IMG/VR virus record: IMGVR_UViG_2906128962_000004
Span: 25,940 to 89,939 of that record
Strand: one strand, 5' to 3'
DNA: 64,000 nt
Source: a virus
Taxonomy: Duplodnaviria > Caudoviricetes
Positions 10,898-29,944 of the stretch are shown one piece after another. The translations under genes and the position numbers were made by a program. Below the pieces are notes generated by a model. The model worked only from the letters and a program-made list of their open reading frames with translations. It was not told the DNA's origin and made no database searches. Positions within the stretch are counted from its first letter, which is position 1. Each line of letters starts with the position of its first letter.

Positions 10898-12406
10898 TTA
10901 GCTTGCCCTACGTCTACGCAACCATTCCTCGGCTTCAGAACGAGTCTCTTCTTCATCATGGAAGGTTTCTTCGTTTGCCGGGGTAAAGTCCACCAGCTGC
11001 GTGAAGCAATATACATCCCAGTGATCCGGCGATTTGATGTTGAGCTTCTCGCGCATCTGCTCTTTCGGCACCATATACCATTGACCGGCTTCATTTAGGC
11101 CGCATGGGATCTTACATGCTTGGTCGACAGCCTTCCCCCCTTTATCAAACTTGAGTCGTCCCTGCTGTACGGCCATTTTGGCCATGATGTTTGCATATGC
11201 ACGCTGGTTGATGAATCGCTCTTTGTCCTTCTTGGTGTGCATCCGTTTACCCCAGCGGATTCGCTGGGCGATGATGCCGTGTTTTTCTTCCAGTACATCA
11301 GCAGTGGTCGCGCCAACGCCGTCGCCATCGATGGCGATCTGAATATTGGGGTATTTCTCCGGGTCACATTCACTGAAAATGAAGTCTGCAAAACGTGACG
11401 GTGTAACAGTGGCTTCCATCTCCTTAACCAGATGAGGGACTACGCGCCGGTGTTTGCCATATCCGGATACCCTGAAGATGCCCATTACTGATTTATCGCG
11501 GCCATTACCTACGTCACAGCAACAGATCCAGCCCCAGCCCATTGCAAGGGGAACTTTACGCCGCTGCGCACGTTCACACTCATCACGGCCAAGCAGATAG
11601 CCGGAAAGCGAGCTGGGGAATTCACCGCGTACCTTAATGAGGTATTCCGGTGACTCCCGGCCACCATAGTCCACCAGCTTTTCACGGATGAATTTCAGCG
11701 TTACGAGAGGCGATTCTTCAGAGTTAAGCTTAATCGCGTTGTATAGCCCATTCGGGTTGGCTTCTGTGCGCGCCAGGCGATGGTGAGAGTCGTAGAATTC
11801 ACCAGCAGTACGCGTCGGCTGCGAGATGAGCATCAGCCGGTTGTCGTCCTGCGTCAGCGCACCTTTGATAATACCGAATGCCTTATCCGATACGCCTGAC
11901 GCTTCATCGATGATGTAAAGCAGGTGCTCTGCGTGCTCACCGGCGAGTGCTTCTTCGTTCCCCAGTCGGAAGCCTTTAGCGATAACTTCCCAGCTACCCT
12001 TCGACGCGTTCTCGTAAAAAGTAACATCGGCCAGGGTGAAGTATTGACCTAACCATGGGAACCGCTTCAGGCATTCTTTCCAGTTCTGCCGGATGTACTT
12101 AAAGATACCGGTTTTAACCTGCTGCAGTTTGTTGGCCACGATGATGATACGAGACTCTGGGAAGAACATCAGGTAGCACAAGATCATGATAGCGGTCATG
12201 TCGGACTTACCCGTACCATGCCCGGAGGAAACCGTCGTCCAGCTGCCGGTCTGCTGAACTGATTCGATAATTTCCTCCTGCTGCCAGGTGGGGATCTTAT
12301 TAAACAAGACTTCAGCAGCGGTTACCCAGTCATAACGATACAGTTTAACCAGCTCCTGCCAGCGCGGGTCTTCAGTGATTGAGCGCCTAGTTATGGCTGC
12401 CATCAT
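10898..12406 (-). CDS. pacB: Terminase large subunit
   Basis: Walker A SGHGTGKS, Walker B IIDEASG, C-terminal RNase H nuclease motifs CDVG, IDGDG, SPDHWD. Confidence 0.95.
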
Positions 12407-13607
12407 CGCCCCCGTACAGCAGGTTATTTACCTCATCATCTGGTATTTCGTCGTCGGCAAATTGTGCAGTTAGGTTGATATCGTTAAGAGAACCGTCAGC
12501 AGCGACATCACCAAACCCGCCACCATCCACCAGGAGATTTACAGCCTCGCGTTTCTCCGCCATAAGTTGTTCGTGCTGAGCATGGCGAATTGCGCGCGCC
12601 TCCCTGGCTTGGCGGTCCAGTTCTTCCGGGTCATAAGCCACAGCTTTAACCTTGTCGGACTCACCATCTTTCACCTCTTTACGTGCCATCTCCATGAGTA
12701 GCGCCGGAACCTTATAGCCATGGGTCTCGATGTAGATCGCGGTATCAACAGCACTCCAGCCGTTTTCCTTTCGCTGCTGGTACGCTTGCATGATTCGTTC
12801 AGGCTCTTCTGTTTTGCGGTCGTGCAGCTCTTGCTCGCGCTTGTTCTTCGCATAGCTCTGACGAATGCCCGCTAACGATCGTGCGGTGTCATTGATGGCA
12901 CCCGCCGCGGCCGCGGCAACAGAGAGAGCTTTCGTTATTGGGTTCGGTCCGGATTCATCATCATCACCTGATGCCGGTGGTTGTTCGGTAAGGAAGGTAA
13001 GGACCGCTTTCACAGTGCGGTTAAGGCAGAACAGGTTAACGAGGGATGATTCGATGGCCATAGCCTCAATATCATCAACACCGGCTGCTGCTATCAGCTT
13101 TCGGGCTTCCTCCATGTCTTCATCGCTGGGGATTATGGAAGCTTCCAGAATCTGGCTACCGGCCATGTATTGATCACGTGTACGTCCCGATTTCGTCTTG
13201 GTCGATACTGCATTGATCAATTTCCCGACCAGCACAGCCTCTTCCGTTTGCCCAGCTTCGACGCGCGCGTGTCTTCCGGCCTCTTTAACTTTCAGGCTTA
13301 ATTCATTGATTTCCTGAGATAAATTTTTATTCTGCTTCGAGGGTTTGTGATCGCTTTTGCGCTTACCTGACTTTTTTTGATCATTTGATCGTTTTCCTGC
13401 CTTTTTAACGATCTGATCAGCTGGTCGCTGGTCTTGAACCTTACCTAATTGAGTCGTGCCTTCCCCCAGGTAGCGACGTGCGGTATTAGGGTTTAAACCA
13501 TAGGTAAGTGCATATTCCTTAATAGATATTTTCTCGCCAGCGGCGCGCATTTCCGCATAGCGATTTCTATGTTCTGACCAGTCCGTTTTTACTGCCACTG
13601 CGATCAC
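12387..13607 (-). CDS. pacA: Terminase small subunit
   Basis: 406 aa, N-terminal HTH ([12 protein letters not shown]), upstream of pacB, GATC cluster in 5' part. Confidence 0.85.
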
Positions 13608-21621: not shown

Positions 21622-21918
21622 CTAGCGGCATTTTGGACACCGGTTGTCGCAGAAATACGGAAAGCTGTTATCCAGCTCGTCCACCCAGCGCTTGTGATCG
21701 TAACAGTAGAAAACCTCCCACGGCAGACCATACTCAAACATCCATTCTTGGACCTGCGCTGTCATCGGTATTGGCGGGATCGTGCTCTGGTTGGTGCTGT
21801 AGCAATTTAAGCGTTCTTCTGCCTCACGCAGCTGGCGCTCAAGGCTCGCTATTTGTTGGCGCATTAGCCGCCGTTCTCTCAGCATTTTGAAGTAAATGCT
21901 CTCATCAGTAACCGCCAT
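21622..21918 (-). CDS. Hypothetical coiled-coil/Zn-binding protein (paralog 2)
   Basis: PWEVFYCYDHKRWVDEL..SFP...CPKC. Confidence 0.7.
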   Translation of the reverse strand: MAVTDESIYFKMLRERRLMRQQIASLERQLREAEERLNCYSTNQSTIPPIPMTAQVQEWMFEYGLPWEVFYCYDHKRWVDELDNSFPYFCDNRCPKCR

Positions 21919-22201
21919 CTTCCCCCCTACATCCCGGACACGTCCCGTAGGTATCGTGCGGGAAGCTACTACACAACTCATCAAGCCAGCGTTCGTGCTC
22001 ATAGCACCAAAAAACCTCCCACGGAACCCTGTGCTTTTTCATCAGAGCCATCAGGTTTGTCGGCATATCTGCCGGTTGGCATTCTTCAGGAAGCAGTTGC
22101 CCGGACAGCTGCATTTCCATGCGCTGCAGCTGGCGCACAAGTTCTGCATTATCCCTTTCCAGTTGCTCACATTTGGCCTGGAGTTCAGCTTTAGTTGGCA
22201 T
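21905..22201 (-). CDS. Hypothetical coiled-coil/Zn-binding protein (paralog 1)
   Basis: PWEVFWCYEHERWLDEL..SFP...CPGC. Confidence 0.7.
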   Translation of the reverse strand: MPTKAELQAKCEQLERDNAELVRQLQRMEMQLSGQLLPEECQPADMPTNLMALMKKHRVPWEVFWCYEHERWLDELCSSFPHDTYGTCPGCRGEDGGY

Positions 22202-22907: not shown

Positions 22908-23696
22908 TTATTTATCCTCCCCACAACCTACTTTCTGAGGCTCCGCCAGAAAAGCAAGGCACAAACTGGCCCAGGTATCTTTAGCGTAATCTGATGCCTC
23001 GATATCTTTGCGTGAAGTAACTCGCCATTGTCCATTCTCGTTCAACCGTCGGTATATTTTGGTACCGACATTTTCGATCTCAGGTACGTGTCTAAGGCAA
23101 AGACGACGTTGTAGTATCGCCTCCCCTGCAGCTATGTTGACGTAGGCCCATGGATTAAAATAACGCGTTGAATACAACCCACCGGCTTCTGGTCTTGCCA
23201 TAGATACGCGCTGCGGTTTCACTCCTGACCTCTCCAGTGCCTCAGCCAAATGTCTGCCCAGCCCCTCTTCAGCAATAACAACATGCCAGACATTTTGTTT
23301 AATCCGGGACAGTACCTCTTCTTCGGTTAGATGCTCACCAATATCAACCACAATAAAGCGTCTTTCGTTCATTTCTCCAGATATGCGGAAAAGAGAAAAA
23401 TTGATACCTGAAAGGCGACTGCTATAACTACAGCAAGCTACCAGCTGTGAAGTAGCCCATTCAAAATTGACCACGGATGTATTGCTCTGCTTTGCCTCGT
23501 TAAGTTCAGTTTCGGTGTATAACGGCACCCTTAAAGTATTTAACCCGGACGGAACTATTCCACGCTTTAGCAATGTGCTACTTAATTTTGCTCTCAGTTG
23601 CTGTGTATTCTGGTATTTAATTGCTGTATCAAATAGAGCGTTTACCAGGTCCCGATAAAGATGCGGTGGTAACGGGTATAAGTCTAAGTTAGGCAT
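22908..23696 (-). CDS. Degenerate paralog of the terminase large-subunit nuclease domain
   Basis: C-terminal about 180 aa align by eye with the PacB C-terminus in this window (RYFNPWAYVNIAA vs [13 protein letters not shown]; KIYRRLNENGQW vs [12 protein letters not shown]). Confidence 0.75.
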   Translation of the reverse strand: MPNLDLYPLPPHLYRDLVNALFDTAIKYQNTQQLRAKLSSTLLKRGIVPSGLNTLRVPLYTETELNEAKQSNTSVVNFEWATSQLVACCSYSSRLSGINFSLFRISGEMNERRFIVVDIGEHLTEEEVLSRIKQNVWHVVIAEEGLGRHLAEALERSGVKPQRVSMARPEAGGLYSTRYFNPWAYVNIAAGEAILQRRLCLRHVPEIENVGTKIYRRLNENGQWRVTSRKDIEASDYAKDTWASLCLAFLAEPQKVGCGEDK

Positions 23697-23970
23697 TGAT
23701 ATTCACCTTAATTGCAAACACCTTCACCGGCTCGGCACCAAAGTGAGGATGAGTTATTGTCTCGATGTCATAGCCGTCATACGGAACAACTATGCGCCGA
23801 TCCGCGTCGTCTTTGCGTGGATAGCCCCTAGTAATAATCAGGCGGTCATATGAGCGTCCAACCAGCCGCTTAGTCCAATAGTCAGTAAACAAACGGTACT
23901 CTTTGGGTTTTTCTCCACGCTTCATAGCGTCAAAATATTCGCCGTTCACCGCCAGGTGGAGATCAGCCAT
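23689..23970 (-). CDS. ASCH/PUA-like domain protein
   Basis: LHLAVNGEYFDAMKRGEKPKEYR signature. Confidence 0.75.
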   Translation of the reverse strand: MADLHLAVNGEYFDAMKRGEKPKEYRLFTDYWTKRLVGRSYDRLIITRGYPRKDDADRRIVVPYDGYDIETITHPHFGAEPVKVFAIKVNINA

Positions 23971-24199
23971 TCTTTTTATACCGGTTGTATGCACCACGTA
24001 CTAGGTGAATAACTTTTTCTACTACAATCCAGAGAAGCAGAATTGGAATGAGCACAAACCAAAACAAAGCGAATAATAGCGCTTCTTTTGGATTCCTTTC
24101 TAGGCCACATTCCTCATCCTGTTTTAGCGAATAGAAATACATGCCAATAAATCCCAGAAAATAAATAACCAGAATAGATAAATAAACGTGAATATTCAT
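23963..24199 (-). CDS. Small membrane protein
   Basis: Two hydrophobic segments; GGAG RBS. Confidence 0.65.
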   Translation of the reverse strand: MNIHVYLSILVIYFLGFIGMYFYSLKQDEECGLERNPKEALLFALFWFVLIPILLLWIVVEKVIHLVRGAYNRYKKNG

Positions 24200-25026
24200 T
24201 TCCCCTCCGAAGTAATGGCGCTTGCACATTTATCACACCAAAAATAGGCCCAACCATTAAAGTTCAAGCGGTAAGAATCACCATGGCATCGAGGGCATTG
24301 AACCAAAACACCACCAGCAACAATGGCTTCGCGAGATGGGGAATCAATGTTTGTAGACTCACGTATGCTGCGTTTGTTTATCTCATCTGGCGATGCCGCT
24401 CTCCAAAGCATATGGGGGTCGGATAATAATACTTCTTTATCTCGCGCCAGTGTCTTACAACGGTCCACCAGCGATTGTGCAGTGACAGTTAGAGAGCGGA
24501 TTTCTCCCGGGGCATCATTGCCAGATATAATAACGGCCAGGCGCTTTAGCATCCTGCGATCTTCACTTTCAGGCGTTGGCTGAGGCTGGCTTTTATTCAG
24601 TGAATATTCAGCCAATTTAGCATTCACATCTAGCTCTTCTTTGAGCATATTGAGATGCGTTTCTTCCACACTGAATTTAGGTACAGAGCGAAGCTCACCG
24701 CATATCATACGGTGCTCATAATCAATGATTTCAGGAGATTGTTCTACCGGCGCTGGCGTGCTGGTGTAGAGCGGAGCGATATTTCTTTCTAGGTCGGTAA
24801 TTACGCTCCATATTGGAATAGATTCAACACCCTGCATAGCCATGCTTCGGTAGCGGTCCGCATAAGCTAATACAGGATTTTCCCGTGTATCGGTGCCCAG
24901 CGCTGCCAGTGCGATTTTATTAATTTCCGCATCAAGCCGCGCAGTGTGCGACTTCGGGTGTATTGCCGCCAAATGAATGACCGCTTTTACGCGCTCAATT
25001 AACTGCTCTTTGGTAAATGTGGTCAT
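24196..25026 (-). CDS. EaA/Ead-like mosaic early phage protein
   Basis: MTTFTKEQLI...EINKIALAAL and PLYTSTPAP motifs typical of lambdoid Ea-family proteins. Confidence 0.6.
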   Translation of the reverse strand: MTTFTKEQLIERVKAVIHLAAIHPKSHTARLDAEINKIALAALGTDTRENPVLAYADRYRSMAMQGVESIPIWSVITDLERNIAPLYTSTPAPVEQSPEIIDYEHRMICGELRSVPKFSVEETHLNMLKEELDVNAKLAEYSLNKSQPQPTPESEDRRMLKRLAVIISGNDAPGEIRSLTVTAQSLVDRCKTLARDKEVLLSDPHMLWRAASPDEINKRSIRESTNIDSPSREAIVAGGVLVQCPRCHGDSYRLNFNGWAYFWCDKCASAITSEGK

Positions 25027-25373: not shown

Positions 25374-25705
25374 TGTTCTGGCTCACCCTGCCCATTCATT
25401 GCTTTCGCTACCGGTGCGGCATAAAGCTCGCTAACTCTCTCCCACTGATTAAACTTTCTGGTGAATTGAATTTGACCAAAAGGAATGCCGCCATTGTGTG
25501 ATGTGATATTTGTGACAATCGCTATTGGTTCGCTACTATCTTTACGGCGTTCCTGTAGCTCGCTTGCGGCTGCGCCACATAACATAAGCAGGTCAGCCAT
25601 ATTTTCTGCCTCTTTCTCCGGTCGCTGGCGGTAAAACGATAAGGCGCTCATGATCCTTAATTGCAGCATGACGACCTGCTCGTCGGTTAATTCGCTATTG
25701 TTCAT
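25370..25705 (-). CDS. Hypothetical Ea-like protein
   Basis: ELQERRK...EP(I/V)A...ELYAAP motif. Confidence 0.55.
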   Translation of the reverse strand: MNNSELTDEQVVMLQLRIMSALSFYRQRPEKEAENMADLLMLCGAAASELQERRKDSSEPIAIVTNITSHNGGIPFGQIQFTRKFNQWERVSELYAAPVAKAMNGQGEPEQ

Positions 25706-25923
25706 ACATTCCACTCCTTACCGCATGACCGGCAGGTAATTACACCGTCCTCATTATCTAGTGCACCATGACCGCACTTATTTCTCTCAGCATCGAGTGA
25801 GGCCAGCGCTATACGCGCCAGCTCTTCCGCTTCTTCTGCTGGCAGCACAATGTTGCTACCAGGTCCGTATGTTTCGCGCCAAGATTGAATTTTTAGAAGA
25901 CGTTCTCTGGTAATCGTTGTCAT
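25702..25923 (-). CDS. EaA-like small protein
   Basis: MTTITRERL...AEELARIALASL. Confidence 0.6.
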   Translation of the reverse strand: MTTITRERLLKIQSWRETYGPGSNIVLPAEEAEELARIALASLDAERNKCGHGALDNEDGVITCRSCGKEWNV

Positions 25924-29723: not shown

Positions 29724-29740
29724 AATTAGTATTATCTGTA
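29724..29740 (+). promoter_or_regulatory. Putative C1-type operator
   Basis: AATTAGTATTATCTGTA. Confidence 0.75.
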
Positions 29741-29944
29741 ATGATACATGCAGAGTTAACTCGGTATCCATGGTAATTTTTGCGGGAAATGATATTTTTT
29801 TTGAGTGCTTATCGCAGATCAATATTGACGAGGGGCAAACAGTGAAGTGATAGAGGCAATGTTGCTGGCCATGCCATAAGGATATACAAAAAACATACTT
29901 AGTACATCCTTTGGGAATCTATTGTATGCCTTATGTAATCCCAT

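Follow-up and report, generated by a model that had tools for sequence, protein, structure and literature searches.

A stand-alone, catalytically degenerate homologue of the PacB nuclease domain in an accessory operon of a P1-like phage-plasmid

An accessory operon of a P1-like phage-plasmid of Citrobacter encodes a 262-residue protein which is a free-standing homologue of the nuclease domain of the large terminase subunit PacB and in which the active site of this domain is lost. As the catalytic residues are gone and the gene is nevertheless kept by selection, the protein probably acts by binding and not by cutting. The stretch of DNA analysed, referred to as the window, comprises 64,000 nucleotides of the 89.9-kb virus record (IMG/VR IMGVR_UViG_2906128962_000004) that represents this phage-plasmid. 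Besides PacB and PacA (12387-13607), the window encodes homologues of Cre and HumD, and an ORF of 2264 residues, matching P1 DarB in size. The initial annotation, made from the sequence alone, had placed the 262-residue protein gene far from the packaging genes, and indeed about 10.5 kb lie between it and pacA/pacB. It belongs to a separate operon, and not to a late packaging module adjoining pacA as expected for a functional large terminase. The features are listed in Table 1.

Homology, predicted fold and active site

The relationship to PacB was revealed by a single collinear BLASTP alignment of residues 86-252 with residues 294-473 of the resident PacB (49.3 bits, 24% identity, E 4e-11). 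All motif pairs from which the initial annotation had deduced collinearity of the C-terminal part with the PacB nuclease domain fall within this one significant alignment. Similarity begins at residue 86 in the comparison with the resident PacB, and at residue 45 against some PacBs in a tblastn search of 2.3 Gb of phage records, where pacB genes of P1-like phages were the only matches (E 5e-9). When 1.8 billion proteins were searched exhaustively with HMMER, a PacB-type terminase was among the few matches to the C-terminal part. Residues 55-259, approximately, are thus truly homologous to the nuclease domain of PacB. The FRISG and LNENGQW beta-hairpin motifs and the G-x-G turn are kept, and the acidic C-terminal tail of PacB (residues 475-502) is absent. 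There is no N-terminal ASCE ATPase domain with Walker A and B motifs; the terminase fold (residues 55-259) is preceded by an unrelated cassette (residues 5-50). Scans of the protein against Pfam, NCBIfam and the PADLOC library identified no family, matches in PHROGs were confined to the N-terminal cassette, and a direct sequence search of the PDB returned noise only. A PADLOC scan that also included seven operon neighbours and two of the short homologues described below (P0116 and P0120) gave zero matches to defence components. PacA was considered as a relative and showed no similarity.

The structure was predicted with AlphaFold2 from an alignment of 64 sequences with checked register, containing the protein, four orthologues, three other short homologues and 56 PacBs. 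The model has a mean pLDDT of 76 (about 85 over residues 84-250) and a beta-beta-beta-alpha-beta-alpha-beta-alpha topology, i.e. an RNase H-like fold with terminase-specific additions. Every significant Foldseek match was a large-terminase nuclease domain. In an independent structure scan of 48,161 chains with VIA-align, ranks 1-14 were all terminase nucleases. Sf6 gp2 was the best match (Z 17.4, rmsd 3.1 Å over 193 residues, model residues 55-259), and E217 (16.2), T4 gp17 (13.0) and the Avs3-bound PhiV-1 terminase (9.9) also scored above RuvC-type folds (Z of 8 or less). PacBs were part of the input alignment, yet the homology was already known from sequence, and the fold match is therefore not circular. 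The structure prediction that had been proposed as a check thus points to the terminase fold.

Conservation within PacB was scored over 116 sequences. Invariant acidic residues are D298, D304, D360, D461 and D464, with D362 conserved at 95%; R303, R402, K448 and WG385-386 are also invariant. The corresponding columns of the 262-residue protein read S90, S96, A142, E144, D240 and A243, so that D298, D304, D360 and D464 are replaced by S90, S96, A142 and A243, respectively. R303, R402, K448 and the WG pair have become L95, W184, R229 and MA. The orthologues have Ser or Gly at position 90, Ala or Val at position 142, and Ala at position 243. The three replacements of catalytic acids named in the initial annotation (D298 to S90, D360 to A142 and D464 to A243) were therefore right, at positions conserved in 100% of the 116 PacBs, and the change from D304 to S96 adds a fourth lost acid.

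In Sf6 gp2, the two-metal site is formed by D244, D296 and D444 together with N441 and K428 (PMC4678813). A profile alignment of the PacB family with Sf6 gp2, numbered after correction for a 20-residue tag offset, equates D461, D464 and K448 of the C-terminal catalytic segment with N441, D444 and K428. From their positions at the ends of beta1 and beta4 in the model, D298 and D360 would correspond to D244 and D296. The metal-binding triad (D298/D360/D464 in PacB, D244/D296/D444 in Sf6) is thus missing from the 262-residue protein, and the equivalent of N441 is the sole surviving residue of the site. As the metal-bridging residue is lost, two-metal catalysis is not credible; judged by these residues, the protein presumably does not cleave DNA. 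Alignment, fold match and residue changes fully support the original description of a stand-alone, catalytically degenerate copy of a terminase nuclease.

Table 1. Features of the locus and of the resident terminase (window coordinates).
Feature	Position	Strand	Basis
Stand-alone nuclease-dead paralogue of the PacB C-terminal domain, whole CDS, 262 aa	22908..23696	-	ORF list, orthologues, dN/dS
N-terminal cassette, residues 5-50, LPPHLYRDLVNALFDTAIKYQNTQQLRAKL..., two predicted helices	23547..23684	-	~60% identity to 45-aa module
Predicted terminase-nuclease (RNase H-like) fold, residues 55-259	22920..23534	-	AF2 model m1c6b62be76c1, VIA-align, Foldseek
Degenerate active-site codon S90	23427-23429	-	Alignment column
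Degenerate active-site codon A142	23271-23273	-	Alignment column
Degenerate active-site codon A243	22968-22970	-	Alignment column
Retained D240 codon	22977-22979	-	Equivalent of PacB D461 / Sf6 N441
ASCH-domain gene, upstream of the 262-aa gene	23689..23970	-	phrog_625; ASCH annotation in relatives
Operon-head promoter-like hexamers and perfect 16-bp motif copy TACAGATAATACTAAT over the -10; putative repressor operator	29724..29770	-	Scan and sequence
Resident PacB, large terminase, 502 aa	10898..12406	-	phrog_2 'terminase large subunit', E 1.9e-39
Nuclease domain of resident PacB, ~residues 285-475, paralogous to the 262-aa protein	10982-11554	-	BLASTP and 116-sequence PacB alignment

Operon setting and variable modules

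The gene is contained in an operon of about 8 kb, consisting of some 18 overlapping minus-strand ORFs from ~29.72 to 21.62 kb. Its ATG overlaps the stop codon of the ASCH-domain gene (ATGCCTAA), giving translational coupling, and the ASCH gene is the only neighbour conserved across all loci. Downstream, a variable small gene is followed by HumD. In relatives, the operon also has Lar-type restriction-alleviation, Ead/Ea22 and DUF262 genes. At its distal end (21622-22201, minus strand), two overlapping paralogous genes of 98 and 126 codons both match phrog_3797, a family which carries the name 'antitoxin PHD' in the annotations of relatives.

A scan for promoters and terminators identified a strong terminator (29970-29951) upstream of the operon, with promoter-like hexamers after it (29770-29731). 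An asymmetric 16-bp motif, TACAGAnAATACTAAT, occurs in the window in about 15 copies with at most three mismatches and in both orientations. Copies are often near gene starts; the one overlapping the -10 is at 29724-29740 (minus strand), and other sites are, for example, 4802, 6595, 9257, 10381, 31736, 33354, 33392, 40620, 51099 and 53501. The P1 C1-operator consensus had no match in the window at up to three mismatches. The 16-bp motif is likely to be the operator set of the phage's C1-type repressor, differing from the P1 consensus. A recurrent motif over the -10 at the operon head makes an early operon with repressor control plausible, and early expression of the 262-residue protein gene with it.

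The N-terminal cassette belongs to a 45-residue module (consensus approximately LPPHVYRELVNSLRDTAVKYQGTQQLREQLS, seen in P0006-P0117) that is present in about 100 protein clusters of unrelated length (55-463 residues), as found by HMMER search of the 1.8 billion proteins. Most carriers have it at the C-terminus, some at the N-terminus or in tandem. Among them are DUF551 proteins and homing endonucleases of the HNH_3/NUMOD4 type. No Pfam family covers the stretch, and an ESM Atlas search with residues 1-60 retrieved unnamed clusters only, with scores within the reach of chance. The window contains one copy. The cassette might serve as a recombination joint or as a docking module common to its carriers. 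A widespread 45-residue cassette shuffling among early genes of enterobacterial phages has been identified.

The linker that follows (residues 44-83; 23448-23565, minus strand) occurs in two haplotypes, KRGIVPSGLNTLRV and NSGVVPCGSDNLWM. Between these, dN exceeds dS over residues 51-83, albeit with tiny counts, which points to recombination or diversifying selection, the counts being too small to separate the two. Variation was also found at the C-terminus. The orthologues from Hafnia and from one IMG/VR contig carry an additional 37-residue CxxC...CxC zinc ribbon, and a comparison of L011:1-864 and L026:4001-4765 with window positions 22908-22945 showed that a 37-residue deletion has cleanly removed this segment from the copy in the window. 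An assignment of the Hafnia module as a Lar restriction-alleviation domain was rejected, since Pfam gave only sub-threshold matches to generic zinc ribbons. Similar zinc ribbons form the tails of two neighbouring ORFs, 24196-25026 and 25702-25923, and of Lar-domain proteins of relatives.

Selection, accessory status and independent copies

Eleven copies of the gene were examined: one in the window, five on plasmids, three in assemblies or metagenome contigs and two in IMG/VR contigs. The orthologues, from phage-plasmids of Citrobacter and Hafnia, are 80-94% identical, and all 11 copies are intact, with neither frameshifts nor stops. Nei-Gojobori dN/dS values are 0.2-0.45 for most pairs and 0.20-0.26 against the most divergent copy (Hafnia); values of 0.65-0.71 were obtained only for pairs with just 7-15 synonymous differences. 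For the nuclease-like domain alone, dN/dS is 0.20-0.24 at a dS of about 0.56. The gene is thus under purifying selection, and the signs of decay that had been named as evidence against the initial annotation (frameshifts in relatives, dN/dS near 1) are absent.

True pacB fragments, in Xenorhabdus and on E. coli pM71903, were seen for contrast. The 196-residue Xenorhabdus protein (P0119) was rejected as a stand-alone copy, as it corresponds to the second half of a pacB gene that is disrupted by a frameshift and adjoins c1; in this contig of Xenorhabdus szentirmaii (L005:5123-6591), pacB is split into overlapping ORFs of 318 and 196 residues, which suggests a defective phage-plasmid. A second place in pM71903 was likewise rejected, being a pacB fragment.

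The operon is common to nine Citrobacter plasmids with more than 92% nucleotide identity, and near-identical operons sit in Citrobacter plasmids of 84-99 kb. The slot after the ASCH gene contains the 262-residue protein gene in five of the nine, an unrelated HNH_3 endonuclease in two (C. portucalensis), and is empty in NZ_CP145667.1; the ninth, NZ_CP056338.1, lacks an orthologue according to similarity search. This gene junction is an insertion hotspot. The HNH_3 protein is a free-standing homing-type endonuclease, located for example at L022:2161-2970 in NZ_CP099368.1. A domain swap between it and the 262-residue protein via a common cassette was rejected, as the C. portucalensis endonuclease has no similarity to the cassette. 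In NZ_CP145667.1, 500 of 501 PacB residues are identical to those of the window's PacB. The terminase therefore works without the 262-residue protein gene, which is dispensable cargo of a hypervariable operon, and the phage is unlikely to depend on it for its own packaging.

With 24-28% identity, the protein is equally distant from every PacB and from every other short homologue. In a quick maximum-likelihood tree, its clade branched from among the PacBs of enterobacteria and vibrios, with a stem of 3.4 substitutions per site; with a quick search and long branches, the tree does not fix its exact position. A recent duplication of the resident pacB was rejected because the two are only 24% identical and because the tree nests the resident PacB in a starred clade to which the protein does not belong.

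A stem of this length implies remodelling well past the active site, as would be expected if the RNase H fold had been repurposed as a scaffold and no longer mimicked a terminase. Such a protein might bind branched DNA or DNA ends without cutting, or might serve as an adaptor with specificity provided by the N-terminal cassette and, in the Hafnia and IMG/VR forms, by the zinc ribbon. The sharing of the cassette with HNH/NUMOD4 and DUF551 proteins, the zinc ribbon of some orthologues, and the presence of HumD and other host-acting genes in the same operon are in line with this. However, the basic residues R303 and R402, invariant in PacB, are lost, and an isolated nuclease domain may bind DNA poorly, to judge from the description that TerL grips DNA with its ATPase domain (PMC5389665). 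We consider a repurposed scaffold improbable.

Three further short homologues were found at other loci. P0104 and P0120 are stand-alone genes for the PacB C-terminal domain (217 residues, 49% identical to PacB), found as insertions next to the cre homologue in contigs which otherwise share synteny with window positions 8959-6788. They are 66% identical to each other, with a dN/dS of 0.16 that indicates purifying selection. P0116 (230 residues; three copies, identical) groups with Pseudomonas-type terminases with 98% support, and is located in an operon of small genes between a polyvalent protein gene (DarA_N/InPase/ddrB-ParB) and LPD1 genes, a Dar-like context. Like the 262-residue protein, these proteins are short (217-230 residues), free-standing and encoded in accessory regions of P1-like or related elements, and the first catalytic Asp (D298) as well as D304 are missing. 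Unlike it, they have kept the equivalents of D360 and D464 and have no N-terminal cassette. Origins and loci are separate: nuclease-dead stand-alone genes of this type have arisen independently in at least two lineages of P1-like elements. The toxicity of a free nuclease could on its own explain why the first Asp was lost convergently, and this loss would then have no bearing on function.

Pseudomonas fluorescens plasmid CP048608.1 encodes a 431-residue paralogue of its own terminase nuclease domain (L015:610-1905; 33% identity over 258 residues, E 3e-32). The gene is located just upstream of that for the PacB-type terminase, inside the packaging module. Most acidic residues are kept, including the equivalents of D298 and D360, and from its sequence the protein may be a second, active nuclease of this module.

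A functionless terminase remnant, captured by recombination and persisting through the translationally coupled operon, might be expected in a mosaic region, all the more with a recombinogenic cassette as N-terminus, a slot that is empty or occupied by an HNH endonuclease in close relatives, and a C-terminal segment of 37 residues deleted relative to the Hafnia and IMG/VR forms. This explanation is already disfavoured, and very improbable, in view of the constraint on the dead domain (dN/dS 0.20-0.24, dS ~0.56), the freedom of the eleven copies from frameshifts and stops, and the low dN/dS (0.16) in P0104/P0120 as a second, independent lineage.

Possible function and comparison with known systems

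The initial annotation had suggested a decoy for Avs sensors, a regulator of packaging or a means to exclude competing phages, all of which are hypothetical. The separate N-terminal cassette, the lack of a recent duplication of pacB and the dead copies of independent origin go beyond that annotation. On balance, we lean towards a role of the 262-residue protein as a non-catalytic mimic in a conflict. Its status as accessory cargo, the hypervariable operon, the apparent repressor control and early expression, the Lar-type genes in relatives and the Dar-like context of P0116 all fit such a role, whereas the narrow distribution of the family (Citrobacter and Hafnia only) counts against mimicry. 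In the proposed course of events, a PacB-type nuclease domain would have been separated from the ATPase domain and the acidic C-terminal tail, would have lost its two-metal active site and so become a stand-alone pseudo-nuclease, and would have gained the promiscuous two-helix cassette at its N-terminus. Early in the lytic cycle, it might then act at the protein level as a mimic or competitor of the folded terminase nuclease domain, and occupy a partner that normally recognises this domain. As the protein is only 24-28% identical to every PacB, mimicry would need to act at the level of the fold.

The leading candidate for this partner, though a tentative one, is an immune sensor of the host, of the Avs3, Avs1 or KpAvs2 type, that engages the folded nuclease domain. 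Pre-loading with the nuclease mimic would leave such a sensor lacking the ATPase half that its activation requires. SeAvs3 engages the nuclease domain in its native fold, and some nuclease domains can by themselves trigger KpAvs2; EcAvs2 and Upx are triggered by the ATPase domain of the terminase, and SeAvs3 reads its active-site residues (PMC13601566). The absence of the ATPase domain and of the active-site residues therefore counts against a decoy for EcAvs2/Upx and SeAvs3, respectively. A free nuclease domain can also activate KpAvs2 instead of blocking it (PMC13601566), which counts against a decoy as well. The wider proposal, that P1-like phage-plasmids have repeatedly evolved dead nuclease copies as early mimics which blunt Avs1/Avs3/KpAvs2-type immunity against the large terminase, seems unlikely as a whole. 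If true, this would be the first phage decoy made from the very protein that the sensor detects.

A terminase or packaging motor, either of a rival or of the phage itself, is the next candidate partner and a somewhat less probable one. The main rival explanation, and an equally doubtful one, is interference with, or regulation of, packaging by a dead domain that binds terminase in a dominant-negative manner, for example by forming a heterodimer with an active nuclease domain or by docking on the ATPase ring. Co-infecting P1-like rivals could be sabotaged in this way, or premature cutting by the phage's own PacAB restrained. The paralogy with PacB, with both hairpins (FRISG and LNENGQW) and the G-x-G turn kept, would suit such binding. 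So would the repeated origin of dead copies specifically within P1-like elements, and the further nuclease-domain paralogue in the packaging module of the Pseudomonas phage-plasmid. On the other hand, the phage's own packaging does not need the gene, as the 500/501 identity of PacB in a relative without it indicates. The PacB C-terminal tail (residues 475-502) is missing, and in other phages the tail of the large terminase is thought to dock on the portal, according to work on D6E (PMC5727402). The equal distance from all known PacBs leaves no obvious target terminase. Finally, the operon is probably silent in lysogens, and its apparent repression in lysogeny argues against exclusion by a resident prophage.

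The known proteins most similar to the 262-residue protein are the TerL nuclease domains (P1 PacB; Sf6 gp2C, PDB 5C12/4IDH; E217), which are homologous and have the same RNase H-like fold with terminase-specific elaborations (Z 16-17). Like them, the protein has both hairpins (FRxSG and LNExGQW) and the G-x-G turn, and it retains the counterpart of Sf6 N441. In contrast to TerL and PacB, however, there is neither an ATPase domain nor an acidic C-terminal tail, and the equivalents of Sf6 D244, D296 and D444 are Ser, Ala and Ala. The gene also differs from pacB in being dispensable and apparently part of a repressor-controlled accessory operon instead of the late packaging operon. Terminase nuclease domains have so far been known as the C-terminal half of the packaging motor and in no other setting. 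In the literature searched, neither a free-standing terminase nuclease domain that is catalytically dead and maintained by selection nor a terminase-derived decoy was described. RuvC-type Holliday junction resolvases have the RNase H-like core in common with the protein (Z 7-8), but the match is much weaker than that to TerL, and there is no catalytic tetrad and no sequence similarity.

With respect to the candidate role, SaPI Ppi and PICI Rpp are comparable. These packaging-interference proteins bind the small terminase subunit and are not known to be homologues of terminase. Both are accessory proteins, and like them the 262-residue protein could bind to a terminase and thereby redirect or block it; their genes are carried by satellites, whereas the 262-residue protein is encoded by the phage itself. 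Anti-Avs proteins have been described in DruSM1, where the ligase ORF55 and the DprA/Smf-like ORF83 counter terminase-sensing Avs, with repair of Avs-made DNA breaks (ORF55) and a predicted AMP binding (ORF83) as proposed mechanisms (10.1101/2025.06.06.658234). These, too, are accessory phage proteins, but their folds are unrelated to that of the 262-residue protein, for which an anti-Avs role is hypothetical. That the known anti-Avs proteins are unrelated enzymes counts against a decoy, and the literature searched contained no terminase-mimic inhibitor of Avs. Should the protein nevertheless be a mimic, core machinery of the phage itself may have given rise to a new class of proteins for anti-defence or for interference between phages, and the protein would be a natural reagent to study the recognition of the nuclease domain by bacterial sensors (Avs1-3, Upx) or by the packaging motor. 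Regardless of its function, the comparison with TerL fixes the annotation of a family of 'hypothetical proteins'.
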